The notes under the pieces are model-generated. The model was not told the DNA's origin. It was given only the letters and a program-made list of their open reading frames with translations, and made no database searches. A program made the translations under genes and the position numbers. Shown here piece after piece: positions 2,598 to 13,703 of a stretch of DNA of 23,754 bases (position 1 is its first letter; each line of letters starts with the position of its first letter). The stretch covers positions 1-23,754 of the forward strand of contig CAZJVE010000016.1 in assembly GCA_964549685.1 (NCBI GenBank), written 5' to 3'. Origin of the DNA: an uncultured archaeon. GTDB lineage: Archaea; Altiarchaeota; Altiarchaeia; IMC4; QMZM01.

Positions 2598-2607
2598 AGC
2601 ATATTTA

Positions 2608-2615
2608 TTTATATA
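2608..2615 (+). promoter_or_regulatory. Putative archaeal TATA box for the KaiC-GTPase/roadblock operon
   Basis: TTTATATA lies 33-40 nt upstream of ATG 2648 in a 50-bp AT-rich gap. Confidence 0.45.
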
Positions 2616-2647
2616 TACTCTGAATATTAAACTATAACCACAACAAG

Positions 2648-3865
2648 ATGGAGCTCTATAAGACAAGTATACCCAAGCTGGATGAGTTCTTGGATGGTGG
2701 CATACGGCCGAAAACGATAACCGTATTCTGGGCCACCCCCGGGATTGAGAATACTCCCTTTGCCTATCAGCTTATGATGGAGAGCCTCGAGCGCGGGGAT
2801 TACTGTGTATATGTCACCCAGTCAAAAAAGAGCAGCACAGTCGAGAAGGAGATAGAGCACTACGGCTGGAACGCCACTCAGTACAGAAAAGTGGGGACGC
2901 TGAAATTTATAGATGCATACTCCGGTTTGATAAATGCTGATTCTGCGGATGAATTCTATGTCAAGGACGCAAGGAATCCCAAGGCAATCACCGAGATGCT
3001 TGAGAAAGCGCTTGGAGATATCAAGGACAAGAACAAGATAGTTGTATTCGATTCCATTTCGACCCTGATAGACCACTGCGGCGAAGAATCCCTGGAAGAG
3101 ATGTCGAACTGGAAGAAACTATTCGAGAAATATAACGCCATGGGGGTTTTTCTCTTTATAGAGTGGCCCTATGAAAAAGGGGTCATGAACAAGATTAAAC
3201 TAATGGCCGATGCAATTGTCCATCTGAAGGCCATAGAGGAGAAGGTAATCCTGAGGGAGTATTTCACCATATCCAAGGTGGCTTGGAACGGCAAGAACGA
3301 GGGGGTCGGAATCCCGTTCAAGATATCGGTTCCCGGCGGAGTCAAGGTCTATATACCCAAGCTACTTGTTACCGGGCCGTATAATGCCGGAAAAAGTTCA
3401 TTTGTTCATTCAGCATCTACTGGAGCGGTTTCCGTGGACAGGCTGGGCACCACAATAGCCCTCGATCACGGCCACGTAGACTATGCCGGATTCTCCGTTG
3501 ACCTCTTTGGAACGCCCGGTCAGGAACGCTTTGACCCAATACTCGGTTTGCTTGGAGGAGAAGCTCTGGGGGTTATAGTTGTCGTCGATTCCGCAGACCC
3601 GGACAGCTTTGCCAGGGCCAAGGAGATGATGGAGAGGTCAAAGAGCGTCGGACTCCCATGTGTTGTTGCCGCAAATAAGGCAAATCTCAAGGGGTCTCTG
3701 AGCCCTGAAGATATCAGGACGAAGATGAGATTGCCCAAGGACATACCTATAATTCCAGTAAGTGCTGACTCGGTGCCTTCAAAAGAAAAGGGCAAGGAAC
3801 CGGCCAAGTTGAATGAGGAGGATTTACATAACGTTTTTGATGTTTTGTTCAAGACATTAATGTGA
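2648..3865 (+). CDS. Fusion of an inactivated KaiC/RAD55-like RecA-fold domain (N-terminal) and an MglA/CvnD-like small GTPase (C-terminal)
   Basis: N-terminus has the KaiC pattern TSIPKLDEFLDGGI, a degenerate Walker A (ATPGIENT), FIDAYS, VVFDSISTL and ADAIVHL. C-terminus has G1 GPYNAGKS, G2 TTIALD, G3 GTPGQERF, VVVDS and G4 NKAN. Confidence 0.88.
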   Translation: MELYKTSIPKLDEFLDGGIRPKTITVFWATPGIENTPFAYQLMMESLERGDYCVYVTQSKKSSTVEKEIEHYGWNATQYRKVGTLKFIDAYSGLINADSADEFYVKDARNPKAITEMLEKALGDIKDKNKIVVFDSISTLIDHCGEESLEEMSNWKKLFEKYNAMGVFLFIEWPYEKGVMNKIKLMADAIVHLKAIEEKVILREYFTISKVAWNGKNEGVGIPFKISVPGGVKVYIPKLLVTGPYNAGKSSFVHSASTGAVSVDRLGTTIALDHGHVDYAGFSVDLFGTPGQERFDPILGLLGGEALGVIVVVDSADPDSFARAKEMMERSKSVGLPCVVAANKANLKGSLSPEDIRTKMRLPKDIPIIPVSADSVPSKEKGKEPAKLNEEDLHNVFDVLFKTLM

Positions 3866-3870
3866 GGTGA
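3864..3870 (+). promoter_or_regulatory. Shine-Dalgarno site for roadblock gene 1
   Basis: GAGGTGA overlaps the upstream stop codon and ends 4 nt before ATG 3875. Confidence 0.6.
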
Positions 3871-3874
3871 GTAA

Positions 3875-4246
3875 ATGCCAGAATCGAAAAAGGAGTCCCT
3901 TTTGAGGGTGCTCAAGGAGCTGACAAGCATAGGCGACATAGAAGGCTCTGCAATAGTAACCAGAGACGGCCTTCTGATAGCCTCGGACCTGTCAGGCGAC
4001 ATAGACGCGGAAACTCTTGCAGCAATGTCCGCTACCATGGTTGGAGCGGCAGAGACAGCAGTCTCCGAGCTCAAGAGAGGGACGGTGGAAAGAGTAATAG
4101 CGGAGGGAGAGCAGACAAAGCTGATAACGACTGGAGCTGGCCCCAATGCAGTCCTCGTCTCCATGGTCAACAAGAGCGCAAATCTTGGTCTAATCCTGGT
4201 TGAGATGAAGAGAACCGCCCATATGATAGAAAAGGAGATAGAGTAA
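3875..4246 (+). CDS. Roadblock/LC7 (MglB-like) protein, copy A1
   Basis: 123 aa with IEGSAIVTRDGLLIAS, LAAMSATMVGAAE and ANLGLIL.EMKR, the typical Roadblock/LC7 pattern. Lies directly downstream of the GTPase. Confidence 0.92.
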   Translation: MPESKKESLLRVLKELTSIGDIEGSAIVTRDGLLIASDLSGDIDAETLAAMSATMVGAAETAVSELKRGTVERVIAEGEQTKLITTGAGPNAVLVSMVNKSANLGLILVEMKRTAHMIEKEIE

Positions 4247-4248
4247 TT

Positions 4249-4617
4249 ATGGATTCCAAAAAGCAAAGACTTACAACATTGCTAGAAGGCCTGGAGCAGG
4301 AGGGTGATGTCGAATACGCTGCCCTGGTGACAAGGGACGGCCTCCTGATAGCATCCGGCTCTAAGGGAGACATCAATGAAGAAACCTTTGCAGCGATGTC
4401 CGCAACAATGCTCGGAGCAGCAGAGACAGCGGTCTCCGAGCTCAAGAGAGGGGTGGTCGAGAGAGTAATAGCCGAGGGAGAGCGGACAAAGCTAATAACG
4501 ACTGGAGCTGGCCCGAACGCAGTCCTGGTTTCCATGGTAAACAAGGACGCAAATCTCGGCCTAATCCTGGTCGAGATGAAGAGGACATCCCACATGATAG
4601 AGGAGGATATCTCATAA
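4249..4617 (+). CDS. Roadblock/LC7 (MglB-like) protein, paralog B
   Basis: 122 aa with VEYAALVTRDGLLIAS, FAAMSATMLGAAE and ANLGLILVEMKR. Starts 2 nt after the A1 stop. Confidence 0.92.
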   Translation: MDSKKQRLTTLLEGLEQEGDVEYAALVTRDGLLIASGSKGDINEETFAAMSATMLGAAETAVSELKRGVVERVIAEGERTKLITTGAGPNAVLVSMVNKDANLGLILVEMKRTSHMIEEDIS

Positions 4618-4618
4618 A

Positions 4619-4990
4619 ATGCCAGAATCGAAAAAGGAGTCCCTTTTGAGGGCGCTCAAGGAGCTGACAAGCATAGGCGACATAGAAGGCTCTGCAATAG
4701 TAACCAGAGACGGCCTTCTGATAGCCTCGGACCTGTCAGGCGACATAGACGCGGAAACTCTTGCAGCAATGTCCGCTACCATGGTTGGAGCGGCAGAGAC
4801 AGCAGTCTCCGAGCTCAAGAGAGGGACGGTGGAAAGAGTAATAGCGGAGGGAGAGCAGACAAAGCTGATAACGACTGGAGCTGGCCCCAATGCAGTCCTC
4901 GTCTCCATGGTCAACAAGAGCGCAAATCTTGGTCTAATCCTGGTTGAGATGAAGAGAACCGCCCATATGATAGAAAAGGAGATGGAATAA
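4619..4990 (+). CDS. Roadblock/LC7 (MglB-like) protein, copy A2
   Basis: 123 aa, identical to A1 except V12A and I122M. Starts 1 nt after the paralog B stop. Confidence 0.9.
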   Translation: MPESKKESLLRALKELTSIGDIEGSAIVTRDGLLIASDLSGDIDAETLAAMSATMVGAAETAVSELKRGTVERVIAEGEQTKLITTGAGPNAVLVSMVNKSANLGLILVEMKRTAHMIEKEME

Positions 4991-5010
4991 ATTCTCCCTT
5001 TTTCTTGCTT
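4991..5010 (+). terminator. Possible oligo-T terminator after the roadblock genes
   Basis: Pyrimidine tract TTCTCCCTTTTTCTTGCTT immediately after the stop codon. Confidence 0.3.
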
Positions 5011-5048
5011 AATAGTTGCGTATATTAATCCGAGGAATCTAATAGCTT

Positions 5049-5891
5049 ATGATGGTTGAGGAAACTACTGGAGCACCAGGGGCTGTAGGAACAACCCAGG
5101 AACCGGTAGCACCGAAGGCAGCGGAAAGCCCTGCGGGAGCACCACAATCAAGTCCAGATGCAACCGGGGGAACCCCCGAAACGCAGGGACAGGCAAAAGC
5201 CATACCCCTGAACATCGAGGGCATTGAAAACATTATCGGCGAGGGTTTTCCTATAGGTTCATGCGTTCTTCTGATAACGCCTCCAATGATTGAGGCAAAT
5301 CTCTTCTGCATGGAATTCGTCTACAGGGGCATTCTGAACAAGGAGCCTGGCATGATTGTCACAATGGACCACTCCCCCGAGGACATGAAGATAAAGGCGC
5401 TCAAGTACGGGTGGAATTTGTCCCGTGGTGAACAGGATAAGATTCTCAAATGGGTCGACGGCTATTCGATAAACGCCAACAAGGACGTGAAAAGCAGCGA
5501 CACGATAAAGAGAATCAGCGGCTCCATAGCCCTCTCGGACCTGACGATTGGCATGAGCCAAATTCAGCGCGAATACCACCAGGTCAGCGACCATTACCGC
5601 TTTATTTTCGACTCTCTTTCAACCCTTTTCATCTACAACGACGCCACGACCATATACCGCTTTCTGAGAGTAATAATCTCAAAGCTTAGAGCATCCGGCG
5701 GAGTTGGATTCTTCACGCTTGGGGAGAAAATGCACGACCAGCAGATTGAGATGACGCTCAGGCACATGATGGACGGCACCATAGAGCTGACCGATGATTT
5801 GACCCTCAGGGCCCAGAGCCTGCCACTCCCAACTCCGAGGAAGGAGGGCAAGCTCGAGCTGACAAACAGGGGCTTCAAGGTTGTTGGATAG
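5049..5891 (+). CDS. Inactivated KaiC/RAD55-like protein with a low-complexity N-terminal extension
   Basis: IPLNIEGIENIIGEGFPIGSCVLL, degenerate Walker A (TPPMIEAN), HSPED, WVDGYS, FIFDSLSTL, HMMDGTIEL, C-terminal LTNRGFKV. The first ~50 aa are rich in P/A/G/T/E/Q. Start may be 5049 or 5052. Confidence 0.85.
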   Translation: MMVEETTGAPGAVGTTQEPVAPKAAESPAGAPQSSPDATGGTPETQGQAKAIPLNIEGIENIIGEGFPIGSCVLLITPPMIEANLFCMEFVYRGILNKEPGMIVTMDHSPEDMKIKALKYGWNLSRGEQDKILKWVDGYSINANKDVKSSDTIKRISGSIALSDLTIGMSQIQREYHQVSDHYRFIFDSLSTLFIYNDATTIYRFLRVIISKLRASGGVGFFTLGEKMHDQQIEMTLRHMMDGTIELTDDLTLRAQSLPLPTPRKEGKLELTNRGFKVVG

Positions 5892-6453
5892 ACCACAACT
5901 CCTCAAAATAGCCCTCAAAGTATTCTGCCACATTCTCCGCATCAACAAGAATATTGGCCTCATGATTCTTCTCAAGGCCGTAATAGCTGAAATTCGTAGA
6001 ACCCAGGATTACAACCTTCCCGTCGATTATAATCAGCTTCGAGTGAGTCGTTACGTCCTCTGAGTCATACCTAATCTGAATTCCTTCTTCCCTCAAAAAC
6101 TCATACGCATTGTTCTCCTTGGAATACTGGTCCACTATAACCCTTACGTCCACCCCCCTCTCATGGGCATCAACCAGCGCCTTGACAATCTTGTTCTGGT
6201 TGCTGTCAAGATAATCCTCATAGTACTTCATCTCGAAGGCGACGATATGAATGGATTGCTGCGCCCTCTGCAGTTCCCTATGCACTGCGGGAAAATAGCC
6301 CCTATCCGCTATGGGAACGAGAGATGCCTTGCTGACGCACGTGACGGAGGAACATAGCTGCTCCTGAAAAACATTCACAACAAGGACCACAATAATCGCC
6401 CCGAGAAGAATTCCCAATGCAACGCCGAACAAAAACCTCTTGCGAATTTTCAC
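5875..6453 (-). CDS. Membrane-anchored phospholipase D / Nuc-family protein with a single HKD motif
   Basis: N-terminal hydrophobic helix, AHERGVDVRVIVD, HSKLIIIDGKVVILGSTN (HxKxxxxD..GSxN), NHEANI. GTG start. Confidence 0.88.
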   Translation of the reverse strand: MKIRKRFLFGVALGILLGAIIVVLVVNVFQEQLCSSVTCVSKASLVPIADRGYFPAVHRELQRAQQSIHIVAFEMKYYEDYLDSNQNKIVKALVDAHERGVDVRVIVDQYSKENNAYEFLREEGIQIRYDSEDVTTHSKLIIIDGKVVILGSTNFSYYGLEKNHEANILVDAENVAEYFEGYFEELWSIQQP

Positions 6454-11591: not shown

Positions 11592-11666
11592 ATGATGTGG
11601 TTAGTAAGATTGCATAAGAATAAGTTGGTAAAATGATGGAACCCGTTTTCATCACTTTATGCATCG

Positions 11667-12236
11667 TCAATTTTGACTTTTTCTTTTTTTACTCACCATT
11701 TCATCATATTTCTTTTTCCATTTCTTGTATTTTTTGTTACTGACCTTTACTGCGGTACTAACTAAAATAACAACCGGTAGTGCATAGAGGCAGAGTAATA
11801 TGGCTAAAATTAAGGAATTCTCTACTATTGGTTTCATATTAGTGAACACAAACCAACAAAAAAGGACAATAGAATTATAGATGTAGATGGGCATTCCTGT
11901 GGCGATGAGGTAGGCTAAATTCATCACTCTAACTTTCTCTTTGGAAGGACCCGCCCCACTTGTATCCTCCTTTTCAATTTTTTCTTTGATTTTCTCCACG
12001 ATGATTATCGTACCCATAATGAAGAAAATGGGGGCTATAAGAGGAACAGAAACAAAAAAGCCAATAGTAACCGATATTAGTATTTGTGATAAATCAAGTG
12101 GTTTGAAACCGATAAATGTACCGTGCAAAATATAGCCATTAACAAAGAAAATCATAAAGAATAGAAATACGAGCGAGGATTTCTCAATATCCTCCATTAC
12201 CTTTAAAATTTCAGAGATTAAACTCTTTTTCGTCAT
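11667..12236 (-). CDS. Hypothetical membrane protein (about 4 TM helices), AT-rich
   Basis: 189-aa open frame with four hydrophobic stretches and a Lys-rich tail; no recognisable family. Confidence 0.7.
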   Translation of the reverse strand: MTKKSLISEILKVMEDIEKSSLVFLFFMIFFVNGYILHGTFIGFKPLDLSQILISVTIGFFVSVPLIAPIFFIMGTIIIVEKIKEKIEKEDTSGAGPSKEKVRVMNLAYLIATGMPIYIYNSIVLFCWFVFTNMKPIVENSLILAILLCLYALPVVILVSTAVKVSNKKYKKWKKKYDEMVSKKRKSQN

Positions 12237-12320
12237 ATTAATTAATCAGAAAATAAAGCAGAAAAATCACTTTTTGTACAAATCCGAAAGGGTATATGGT
12301 GGATTAGATGATTTTATTTT

Positions 12321-12372
12321 CTAGGCCTCGCGTGCGACACCGCACGGTAGGTCTCGAAAACGCGACAAAACC
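12321..12372 (-). repeat. IS6-like terminal inverted repeat plus subterminal repeat, facing left
   Basis: Minus strand from 12372 reads GGTTTTGTCGCGTTTTCGAGACCTACCGTGCGGTGTCGCACGCGAGGC, homologous to the right-facing end at 12408. Confidence 0.55.
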
Positions 12373-12407
12373 TAGAAAATTGTTCACATTTTTGTAAACA
12401 ATATTTT

Positions 12408-12476
12408 GGTTCTGTCGCAAATTCGGGACTTCTACGAAAAACCTGTTTGCTTGTCGCACGCGGGACTTTTTCTACC
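12408..12476 (+). repeat. IS6-like terminal inverted repeat plus subterminal repeat, facing right
   Basis: GGTTCTGTCGCAAA (12408-12421) is one base from the IS257/IS1216-type IR GGTTCTGTTGCAAA as recalled. An internal second copy TGTCGCACGCGGGACTT starts at 12452. Confidence 0.65.
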
Positions 12477-12482
12477 GAATTT

Positions 12483-12504
12483 GGGATTTTCATTGCAAAA
12501 TCCC
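12483..12504. repeat. 8-bp hairpin upstream of the island genes
   Basis: GGGATTTT-cattgc-AAAATCCC; function unknown. Confidence 0.5.
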
Positions 12505-12549
12505 CACTCAGAAAAACCAGAAAATTTGGTGGGGGTGGATGTGATGTAA

Positions 12550-12786
12550 ATGGATAAAAATGTAGTGCCTAACTCCGATTTAAAGGATGAAAAACAAGGA
12601 TTAAATGATAAGAAAATGCCTGATTTAGTAGATTATATTGCTTATGCTGTATTTGGGGGCTTAATAGCCATTTTTCTTTTTCCCGCTATATCCCCCCACG
12701 TATCAAATTTTATTGTTCTTGGACAGAATGATTATTTTGTTGTAGGGGCGATTATTGGTATTCTTATTGGTTTACGTAGACGATGA
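12550..12786 (+). CDS. Small hypothetical membrane protein (2 TM helices)
   Basis: 78 aa with two hydrophobic stretches. G-rich SD-like sequence upstream and ATGA overlap with the next gene. Confidence 0.65.
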   Translation: MDKNVVPNSDLKDEKQGLNDKKMPDLVDYIAYAVFGGLIAIFLFPAISPHVSNFIVLGQNDYFVVGAIIGILIGLRRR

Positions 12787-13433
12787 TACTCCAAGATTTT
12801 TTTTATACTTTTCAATCAAGCATACTAGCCACTTGGCTTATTGCGGGTATTGTAATTTTATTAAAGAGAAGAGCAGGTAAAAAAGTTAGTAGTGATGATT
12901 ATGTGCGGATAATTCTAGATGCCTATCTAATTGTTTCTTGTATTTCAATTCTTTATTTTATACTTACTGACGGTAGTTTTATTTTTGGAAATCAAATAAG
13001 TGATTTATATATCCCATTGAGCGTTGCAGTAGTGATTTTGTTAAATTATTCTCTAGGAGAGTTGAAGGGTATGGGGGATTACCTCTCTAATACCCAAGAA
13101 AGTGCCGTTAGTGGGTCTAATCAATCTGAAGAAACAGAATCTAAAAAACCTAAAAGTCCAACCAATGGAAAAAAGTTGAAGAAATATTCTAAAACGGATT
13201 TCAACAATATTGAACTGAGCATTATGAATAGATTGAATAAATTATATGGGTATCGTCCATGTAGAATAGAGTTCTTACAAAATGAACTTTCACTAACGGC
13301 TATGGATATGAATAAGGCCATTTTCAATTTGAAGAAGGCTGAGGCAATAACTGCACAAGGCTCTGATGTTAAACATCCTACCATGAGTCTTAATGAAATT
13401 TTTAAAAAAGACCATGAAGAACTATTTGATTAA
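12783..13433 (+). CDS. Hypothetical protein: 3 N-terminal TM helices, polar linker, possible C-terminal winged helix
   Basis: 216 aa. C-terminal FNNIELSIMNRL..CRIEFLQNELSLTAMDMNKAIFNLKKAEAIT has wHTH-like spacing (judged by eye). Confidence 0.7.
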   Translation: MILQDFFYTFQSSILATWLIAGIVILLKRRAGKKVSSDDYVRIILDAYLIVSCISILYFILTDGSFIFGNQISDLYIPLSVAVVILLNYSLGELKGMGDYLSNTQESAVSGSNQSEETESKKPKSPTNGKKLKKYSKTDFNNIELSIMNRLNKLYGYRPCRIEFLQNELSLTAMDMNKAIFNLKKAEAITAQGSDVKHPTMSLNEIFKKDHEELFD

Positions 13434-13534
13434 CATTTAACACTCGCCATCATCAACCCCAACATCTTATTCTCTCCCAAATTCAGGTCTATCCCTGCGG
13501 CCTCGGCGGGTGTAGTGCCTAACTTTTTGATTGG
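13430..13534 (-). pseudogene. C-terminal remnant of an archaeal IS6-like DDE transposase/integrase
   Basis: Hand translation gives PIKKLGTTPAEAAGIDLNLGENKMLGLMMASVKC*. TPAEAAGI..L..GENK is the tail that follows YNxxRPH in these enzymes. No start codon or catalytic core is present. Confidence 0.65.
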
Positions 13535-13678
13535 TTACTTTGCTGAACTTGTAATAAATATCAGTTTATCGCATTTAGGGCAAACCCAGAAGTGTTGTTT
13601 CCTGTAGCCCCCCACATCCTCCTTCTTTTCATTCAATTCCTTTACTGTTATCTTCTCATCACATATTGGACATCTCAT
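13535..13678 (-). CDS. Small CPxC...CPxC zinc-finger/zinc-ribbon protein (47 aa)
   Basis: Not in the ORF track. MRCPICDEKITVKELNEKKEDVGGYRKQHFWVCPKCDKLIFITSSAK; starts 25 nt after the hisH stop on the same strand. Confidence 0.75.
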   Translation of the reverse strand: MRCPICDEKITVKELNEKKEDVGGYRKQHFWVCPKCDKLIFITSSAK

Positions 13679-13703
13679 TTTCCGTTTGAAATATAGTCCC
13701 CAT

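Follow-up and report, generated by a model that had tools for sequence, protein, structure and literature searches.

A conserved archaeal gene set joining an inactivated KaiC-like/small GTPase fusion to Roadblock proteins and a second KaiC-like protein: a probable signalling switch

The 23,754-nucleotide (nt) contig CAZJVE010000016.1 of an uncultured archaeon of the Altiarchaeota (assembly GCA_964549685.1; the whole stretch is referred to here as the window) carries at positions 2648 to 5891 a compact cluster of five genes, in which a protein joining a KaiC-like domain to a small Ras-superfamily GTPase domain is encoded together with three Roadblock/LC7 proteins and a second KaiC-like protein, referred to as KaiC2. 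Because this uncharacterised gene set recurs across many archaeal lineages, we consider it probably a signalling switch. In the reading we favour, to which we assign a probability of roughly 0.6, the cluster encodes a conserved archaeal module in which a Roadblock-regulated GTPase of the MglA type would be mounted on a heteromer of KaiC-like domains that have lost their ATPase motifs. The evidence comes from the domain make-up of the proteins, the linkage and co-occurrence of their genes, purifying selection and a structural model of the two KaiC-like parts.

All five genes lie on the plus strand with intact reading frames. The fusion gene (2648..3865) encodes 405 amino acids (aa), with the KaiC-like domain of RecA fold in residues 1-236 (2648..3355) and the GTPase domain in residues 236-405 (3353..3865). 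It is followed by Roadblock gene 1 (3875..4246, 123 aa), gene 2 (4249..4617, 122 aa) and gene 3 (4619..4990, 123 aa), whose products match the Robl_LC7 family with E values of 5.8e-18, 2.9e-15 and 1.5e-17, respectively, and by the gene for KaiC2 (5049..5891, 280 aa), a protein of the DUF7504/DUF7090 type. An earlier reading made from the DNA letters alone (the sequence-only reading) had described this layout, and its framework stands: the five co-oriented genes and the gaps of 9, 2, 1 and 58 nt between them agree with the coordinates, the GTPase motifs it named (GPYNAGKS, TTIALD and GTPGQERF) are present in the 405-aa translation, and Pfam confirms the KaiC-GTPase fusion, the three Robl_LC7 proteins and the second KaiC-like protein.

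Residues 5-236 of the fusion match the Pfam family KaiC (PF06745, E 3.1e-24), and KaiC2 matches KaiC (E 2.9e-20), DUF7504 (E 2.9e-15) and also DUF7090; in an NCBIfam scan, KaiC models were matched only below threshold. When compared with the PDB, a profile of 47 fusions finds the hexameric Pyrococcus protein PH0284 (2dr3) at E 5.9e-27, and the KaiC2 family profile finds KaiC at E 3.8e-25; KaiC2 was also aligned with 33 orthologues. In the fusion family, the Walker A segment PGTGKTIF of PH0284 is aligned with PGvendvF (PGIENTPF in the window), and the segment ALEEHP, which contains the Glu-Glu position, with vsskkp (QSKK in the window). The Walker A Lys is absent from all 47 aligned fusions, which come from many phyla, and P31 and F38 are invariant among them. 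The KaiC2 family has ttdks opposite TFEESP, and in the protein of the window TPPMIEAN stands in place of Walker A and MDHS in place of the two Glu residues. Neither KaiC-like part retains the GK[ST] of Walker A or the catalytic pair of Glu residues, and as judged from these motifs the two are not ATPases. The same genome encodes six to seven canonical KaiC-like proteins, which score 170-207 bits as compared with 85 and 73 bits for the two proteins of the cluster.

The sequence-only reading had called both KaiC domains dead, which holds for the window and not for the KaiC2 family as a whole, since orthologues in Archaeoglobaceae and Methanoperedens/ANME-2 (anaerobic methanotrophic archaea, group 2) keep the Walker A Lys. 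The motif reads GPPLVGKS/T at Archaeoglobaceae loci, GPPMxGK[ED] at loci of Methanoperedens, ANME-2 and Methanocellales and SPPLxGK[EK] at DPANN-type loci, with TPPMIEAN being the form in the window's clade. As the Lys is kept in the KaiC2 of other lineages, the ancestral partner may have bound nucleotide, and this ability may have been lost in the clade of the window. The N-terminus of KaiC2 (window 5049-5200) consists of an Ala/Pro/Gly/Thr-rich tail of about 50 residues that is kept in two close relatives (loci L004 and L005) and missing in more distant orthologues.

The AlphaFold2 model of the whole fusion has a predicted local distance difference test score (pLDDT) of 90 and a predicted template modelling (TM) score of 0.84, and in it a single continuous strand (residues 231-242) links the KaiC-like domain to the G domain. 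In Foldseek, the N-terminal half is placed on PH0284 (2dr3) with an E value of 1.2e-18 and a TM score of 0.86-0.88. The possibility that the fusion as a whole imitates the CI-CII architecture of KaiC was considered and rejected, as the comparison of the whole fusion with full-length KaiC aligns both halves only at a root-mean-square deviation (rmsd) of about 13 Å.

The G domain retains its motifs from G1 to G3. Residues 238-364 match the Pfam families Arf, MMR_HSR1 and Ras (E 1.5e-8 to 1.6e-6), and the fusion matches the NCBIfam model small_GTP (E 1.5e-12). G1 (GPYNAGKS), G2 (GTT) and G3 (DLFGTPGQ, within DLFGTPGQERF) are intact, and 41 aligned domains show little or no variation in them; in the GTPGQ motif the G, P, G and Q are invariant and the T nearly so, as are, without exception, both Thr residues of G2. 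According to the available part of the survey by Wuichet and Sogaard-Andersen (2015; PMC4316618), GTPGQ together with a Thr that replaces the intrinsic Arg is the signature of MglA groups 2-5, and the fusion carries both the GTPGQ form of G3 and a Thr beside the G2 Thr. The same part of that survey is restricted to short single-domain proteins and reports no conserved neighbours for the archaeal MglA group 4.

The G4 motif (window 3671-3682) reads NKAN, in which the Asp of the [NT]KxD found in MglA groups 2-5 is replaced by Asn. Among 79 related fusions (an additional locus, without the anchor motif, is not counted), 60 have NKxD, 17 NKxN, one NKSS and one NKIE, and all of the NKxN forms belong to the Altiarchaeota/DPANN-type branch. 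In Ras or EF-Tu, this Asp-to-Asn exchange moves the specificity from guanine to xanthine nucleotides. The Altiarchaeota/DPANN-type branch is also distinguished by an insertion of about 16 residues after G5.

The structural model of the G domain (pLDDT 88) was compared with known folds using VIA-align, which returned Arf6 (Z 17.6), Sar1 (16.5), SR-beta (14.8), MglA (14.0) and RagD (14.0), and the top Foldseek rows are all Arf/Arl. All of these share one fold, and by its modelled structure the domain would be an ordinary small GTPase with Arf and Sar as its closest counterparts. Free relatives of it, 167-172 aa long and 53-59% identical, exist on long contigs. One fragment record bears the label 'COG2229, COG0467', which means that automatic annotation had at least recognised the two domains together.

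In order to learn whether the genes of the cluster belong together, we analysed the fusion and its neighbourhood across archaea. At E<=1e-3, 1489 of the 8000 candidates scored are homologues of the fusion, and each of the 120 best carries both domains in one protein of 341-426 aa. In species-representative genomes, 259 loci were confirmed by a pattern scan; the neighbourhood counts given here rest on the best 80 of these, at which ORFs (open reading frames) were called mechanically and matched by phmmer to the proteins of the window. Going by record titles, these 80 loci span Altiarchaeota, Woesearchaeota/Nanoarchaeota, Archaeoglobaceae, Methanoperedens, ANME-2, Methanocellales, Methanosarcinaceae, Thermoplasmatota and metagenome-assembled genomes of 'Halobacteria'. 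A Roadblock gene is present at 75 of the 80 loci, no more than 150 nt from the fusion at 62, and four of the five loci without one end less than 700 nt after the fusion gene. A co-oriented KaiC-like gene is found at 56 loci (within 150 nt at 41), and both kinds of partner occur together at 54. The euryarchaeal order is partner, fusion, Roadblock, with stops and starts that often overlap. In an all-against-all clustering, no other gene family reached more than 15 of the 80 loci. The sequence-only reading had made its proposal depend on such linkage being found elsewhere, and the linkage is there, both in these loci and in the phylum.

Within the phylum, 61 genomes were surveyed using the G-domain profile at E<=1e-30. 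The fusion was detected in 18 of them, each time in a frame of about 395-463 aa. Of 21 further genomes belonging to the family of the window, 16 have it, and of 21 genomes from another family none does. Roadblock proteins occur in 19 of the 61 genomes, namely in all 18 with the fusion and in one of the 43 without it. Orthologous KaiC2 (E<=7e-58) was found in 17 genomes, 15 of the 18 with the fusion and two of the 43 without, and the three fusion genomes that lack it are 60, 75 and 88% complete. In the assembly of the window itself, which is 85% complete, the three Roadblocks of the cluster are the only Robl_LC7 matches and the fusion is the best Ras-like match, with the other two located in frames of 622 and 583 aa.

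To assess a direct contact between the two KaiC-like parts, the complex of fusion residues 1-236 and KaiC2 residues 52-280 was modelled using a separate alignment for each. The runs scored 0.79, 0.75 and 0.81, as compared with 0.00 for the best of three controls, with a contact agreement of at least 93% and a partner pLDDT of at least 87. Of 157 solved complexes, 116 attain the mark applied to these scores, as do 2 of 215 mismatched pairs, counts that are only a rough guide when own alignments are used. The predicted contact corresponds to a RecA-type subunit interface. On the fusion side, it would be formed by the dead P-loop (residues 29 and 31-34) and by residues 58-61, 136-143, 171-175 (with W173 and Y175) and 197-202; on the KaiC2 side, by residues 157-170 and 196-217, which include the invariant R204 and F205. 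In a test that pools surface and core residues, the interface columns are more conserved than the rest in both the fusion (mean entropy 1.29 vs 1.99, p 4e-5) and KaiC2 (1.53 vs 2.03, p 1e-3). The model thus supports a heteromer of the KaiC-like domain of the fusion and KaiC2. The sequence-only reading had imagined the dead KaiC domains co-assembling into a ring, and of this idea the heterodimer is what the modelling upholds (0.79 vs 0.00 for the best control).

The Roadblock proteins are related to the partners of known small GTPases. They match the MglB model of NCBIfam below threshold (E 1.5e-4 to 7.6e-4) and MglB chains at E values of 1e-4 to 7e-2; in the profile search of the PDB, Roadblock 1 matches 9jue (3.5e-26), CvnB5 (3leq, 2.6e-9) and MglB (1.1e-4). 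No other solved structure comes nearly as close as chain D of 9jue, a 131-aa 'Roadblock/LC7 domain protein', and a literature search for this entry found no paper that names it.

The three genes form a tandem array with a period of 373 nt. Copies 1 and 3 differ at three nucleotides within the coding sequence (99.2% identity), and copy 2 shares 74% nucleotide and 76% protein identity with copy 1, with the changes falling mostly in the first ~45 residues (dN, the nonsynonymous rate, 0.38 for codons 1-45 vs 0.07 for the rest). Copy 2 is an older paralogue, and its orthologue in L004 is 93% identical in nucleotides. L004, a 95%-identical relative, has the same three genes, and L005, an 86%-identical one, has a single gene. 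Since copies 1 and 3 are more alike within a genome (99.2% in the window, 93.8% in L004) than orthologues are between the genomes (90-92%), gene conversion is indicated. The three-copy array is corroborated by L004 and by a further genome, G030, each with the same three genes; among the 80 loci, 65 have one Roadblock copy, nine have two, one has three and five have none. What the sequence-only reading took for part of the layout, three Roadblock genes, is therefore true of the window and not of the module at large. The triple is a recent amplification at the level of the genus rather than a defining trait, and for that reason ancient, distinct heteromer subunits are unlikely.

Relatives of the cluster frequently carry additional genes, for which one representative of each of 17 protein clusters was scanned. 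V4R proteins occur at 15 loci, directly after the Roadblock gene in Archaeoglobaceae and between Roadblock and fusion in Thermoplasmatota. At DPANN-type loci, a protein with three PAS domains (15 loci) and a dCache-HAMP membrane protein (7 loci) are interleaved with extra Roadblock genes ahead of KaiC2. A TrmB-type regulator is encoded upstream of the fusion at 11 loci, and a DUF2226 protein follows the Roadblock gene at eight Altiarchaeota loci; that the latter might be a disguised second KaiC-like protein was rejected (hhalign probability 0.1). Owing to its V4R, PAS, dCache-HAMP and TrmB neighbours, the module looks like a signalling unit with exchangeable inputs. None of these five kinds of gene is present in the cluster of the window. 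The genome contains six V4R matches, all of them away from the cluster, and at 85% completeness no HAMP match.

Two further observations concern proteins of these kinds. On contig C6 of the same assembly, at about 29150-34240, there is another KaiC-centred cluster, in which two to three canonical KaiC-like genes adjoin four V4R matches, two of them in frames of 418-422 aa. At seven DPANN-type loci, ORFs of 113-124 aa without a Pfam match (clusters c19 and c25) are located between fusion and Roadblock, and these may be divergent Roadblock or longin-like proteins.

Taken together, we propose the following working model. A small MglA-type GTPase would be covalently mounted on a KaiC-fold domain no longer able to use ATP, and this domain would pair through a RecA-type interface with the separately encoded KaiC2, so that the former ATP site of the fusion would now serve as a protein contact. 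The resulting scaffold would be a heterodimer at least and possibly an alternating ring. Genome linkage and the precedents of MglA/MglB and the conservons suggest that one or more Roadblock/LC7 dimers would dock on the tethered G domain and control which nucleotide state it is in, acting as GTPase-activating protein, as exchange factor or as both, much as MglB does for MglA or CvnB for CvnD. Elsewhere among the lineages, input might come from the V4R, PAS and dCache-HAMP proteins encoded in the same cluster, acting through the Roadblock or the scaffold. In the present genome, the switch would operate with no sensor gene in cis and with its Roadblock amplified to three copies.

Several points weigh against this model. 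As the sequence-only reading had already remarked, no sensor or output gene is visible among the window ORFs scanned, and it is only the clusters of relatives that do carry such genes. Two genomes hold KaiC2 without the fusion, and at several Altiarchaeota loci KaiC2 is missing from the 4-5 kb around the fusion or is encoded on a separate contig. Since the genomes of one phylum are kin, the co-occurrence counts exaggerate how many events were independent; such events are few, comprising presence in two families and joint absence from one genus. As to the complex, its high score may partly reflect memory of the interface, since KaiC/RecA-type oligomers have already been solved, the model contains one of the two interfaces that a ring needs, and the pooling of surface with core residues limits the conservation test. 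The G domain is closer to Arf/Sar than to MglA by fold and profile, and its specificity for guanine is not assured in the window's clade, given NKAN here and NKxN in 17 of the 79 relatives.

A more far-reaching version of the model is possible, and we regard it as rather doubtful. In it, the nucleotide-dependent step would have been moved out of the KaiC-type oligomer, with the ATP sites turned into permanent contacts between the subunits of a hetero-oligomer of the two inactivated KaiC-like proteins and the switching done by a tethered MglA-type G domain gated by Roadblock dimers. The module would then be an archaeal counterpart of Roadblock-scaffolded GTPase signalling wired into a KaiC 'hub', and the NKxN proteins of Altiarchaeota/DPANN would no longer be guanine-specific.

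A different role for the Roadblocks can be envisaged, in which they are adaptors that link sensors or KaiC2 to the scaffold and the G domain cycles by itself or under control of the KaiC partner. This would fit the DPANN-type loci, where Roadblock genes are directly beside the dCache-HAMP and PAS genes, as well as several Altiarchaeota loci (such as L012 and L017), where a second Roadblock gene immediately precedes KaiC2. In addition, the available part of PMC4316618 describes the MglB partners of MglA groups 2-5 as having no conserved catalytic residue. However, the nearest Roadblock gene is within 150 nt of the fusion at 62 of the 80 loci, and the partners established for GTPases of the GTPGQ type, as far as the partly available sources on MglA/MglB and conservons go, are Roadblock dimers. 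We therefore think a pure adaptor role unlikely, and prefer Roadblock regulation of the mounted G domain.

Alternatively, the module might be an accessory of one specific machine, such as ribosome biogenesis or translation, or the control of type IV pili or the archaellum. The neighbours of the cluster in the window include SepRS, LeuRS and an NMD3 homologue, and at 14 loci of Methanoperedens/ANME-2 and Thermoplasmatota the module abuts genes for YhbY/CRS1, S19e, the PDCD5-like dsDNA_bind protein and eIF6, whose orientations differ between the two groups. According to the available part of PMC4858521, archaeal type IV pili loci often encode KaiC-family ATPases and Roadblock proteins of arCOG02603. 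Yet these neighbours are not kept across lineages, there being no cluster besides KaiC-like and Roadblock proteins at more than 15 of the 80 loci, and no pilus gene was noticed among the representatives scanned (one for each of 17 clusters). A dedicated accessory of this kind is accordingly improbable in our view.

The loss of Walker A and of the catalytic Glu from both KaiC-like parts, the altered G4 (NKAN) and the missing HAMP match in a genome of 85% completeness might also be taken to mean that the module is a remnant which is decaying in this genome after its sensors were lost. Against this, the dead Walker A of the fusion is common to all 47 aligned members from many phyla, the five frames are intact, and the ratio of nonsynonymous to synonymous substitution rates (dN/dS), computed against the two relatives L004 and L005, is 0.10-0.11 for the fusion, 0.02-0.07 for the Roadblocks (0.03 for gene 1) and 0.10-0.13 for KaiC2. 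Values of 0.02-0.13 in all five genes indicate purifying selection and thus working proteins rather than decaying genes, which leaves very little room for decay. Less credible still is a role of the KaiC-like NTPases in a system of defence against viruses, for which the convergent DrmC/NucT-type gene overlapping the cluster end could be adduced, as the four proteins scanned (the fusion, Roadblocks 1 and 2 and KaiC2) have no PADLOC match at E<=1e-3 and the cluster shows a housekeeping context, even GC content and vertical conservation within a family.

Among characterised systems, the proposed switch can be compared with MglA/MglB of Myxococcus xanthus and Thermus thermophilus, in which a Ras-like GTPase is likewise encoded beside a Roadblock/LC7 dimer protein. 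MglA (5ymx) has the same fold as the G domain (Z 14.0, rmsd 3.1, 152 aligned residues), and just as the MglA family has its coupled MglB gene, the fusion has a Roadblock gene at nearly all loci. Group 1 MglA has a TVPGQ form of G3 and an intrinsic Arg beside the G2 Thr (PMC4316618, in its available part), whereas the cluster has GTPGQ and Thr-Thr. Moreover, MglA is a free single domain of about 160-200 aa, in contrast to a 405-aa fusion with a second KaiC-like partner, and no polarity or motility context is seen at the cluster.

The actinobacterial conservons (CvnA-D/Mfp), proposed in the partly available sources to be operons for G-protein signalling units with a membrane sensor, also pair an MglA group 2 GTPase of the GTPGQ type with a Roadblock of the MglB type, and the dCache-HAMP membrane protein in the clusters of DPANN relatives adds to this likeness. 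The differences are that neither a histidine-kinase-like CvnA nor a DUF742 CvnC is found among the window ORFs scanned and that KaiC-like proteins are not part of conservons.

The archaeal single-domain KaiC-like ATPases (PH0284, PH0186, SSO2452 and ArlH) and cyanobacterial KaiC share fold and family (PF06745) with the proteins of the cluster, from which, however, the GK[ST] of Walker A and both catalytic Glu residues are missing. Clock KaiC is a double CI-CII protein with autophosphorylation sites and KaiB as partner, whereas the cluster proteins have one KaiC-like domain each, and with no KaiB or KaiA among the window ORFs scanned a clock function is not implied. Related in concept are the 'inactivated KaiC' (iKaiC) proteins and KaiC-centred archaeal hubs (Makarova, Galperin and Koonin 2017, mBio, as cited in the available part of PMC5847659), in which divergent, probably inactive KaiC-like domains are similarly combined with signalling domains. 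In eukaryotes, Ragulator-Rag uses Roadblock-domain dimers as a platform for small GTPases (PMC10933270, available in part). Rag GTPases, however, have a C-terminal Roadblock domain of their own and act as heterodimers on lysosomes, whereas the G domain of the cluster is fused to a KaiC-like domain and its Roadblocks are paralogues of recent origin, not separate subunits of long standing.

With regard to the surroundings, the cluster is preceded by an AT-rich spacer (2600..2647, plus strand) with a TATA-like TTTATATATA about 35-40 nt upstream of the fusion start codon, which, read by eye, might conceivably be an archaeal promoter for the cluster. A second spacer, the 58 nt ahead of the KaiC2 gene (4991-5048), contains the T-run TTTTTCTT and then TATATTAA about 25 nt before the ATG, and so may hold a terminator and an internal promoter. 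SepRS and ThiL are encoded upstream of the cluster; downstream there are a phospholipase D (PLD)-like gene in convergent orientation, an aminotransferase, LeuRS and the NMD3 homologue. The PLD-like gene (NucT/DrmC type, with an N-terminal hydrophobic helix; 5875-6453, minus strand) overlaps the end of the KaiC2 gene by 17 nt. Elsewhere in the window, positions 11600-13700 form a stretch of low GC content (0.34-0.40 vs about 0.50 in the rest), with ORFs at 11667-12236 (minus) and 12783-13433 (plus) that have no Pfam match.

Our literature search, with Makarova et al. 2017 and the supplements of PMC4858521 and PMC4316618, which may already list genes of this set, lying outside its coverage, found no paper that describes or tests this layout. 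The parts come from known families (KaiC-like proteins, MglA-type GTPases and MglB-type Roadblocks), and the pairing of GTPase and Roadblock is known as well. What is different here is the fusion to an inactivated KaiC, the obligatory second KaiC-like partner, the predicted interface at the dead ATP site and the NKxN form of G4.

Signal transduction in archaea is poorly understood, and the KaiC-like proteins that are abundant there are mostly uncharacterised. To our knowledge, prokaryotic pairs of Ras-like GTPases and Roadblock proteins have been studied only in a few bacteria. In the gene set described here, KaiC-like proteins and a GTPase/Roadblock pair are joined in one conserved, compact unit, which provides a directly testable case of a pseudo-enzyme scaffold. 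Natural variants exist at the key residues, with the Walker A of the partner intact, in the form GK[ED] or lost, and G4 as NKxD or NKxN, and the presence of relatives in Archaeoglobaceae and Methanosarcinaceae raises the prospect of proteins that can be handled experimentally.

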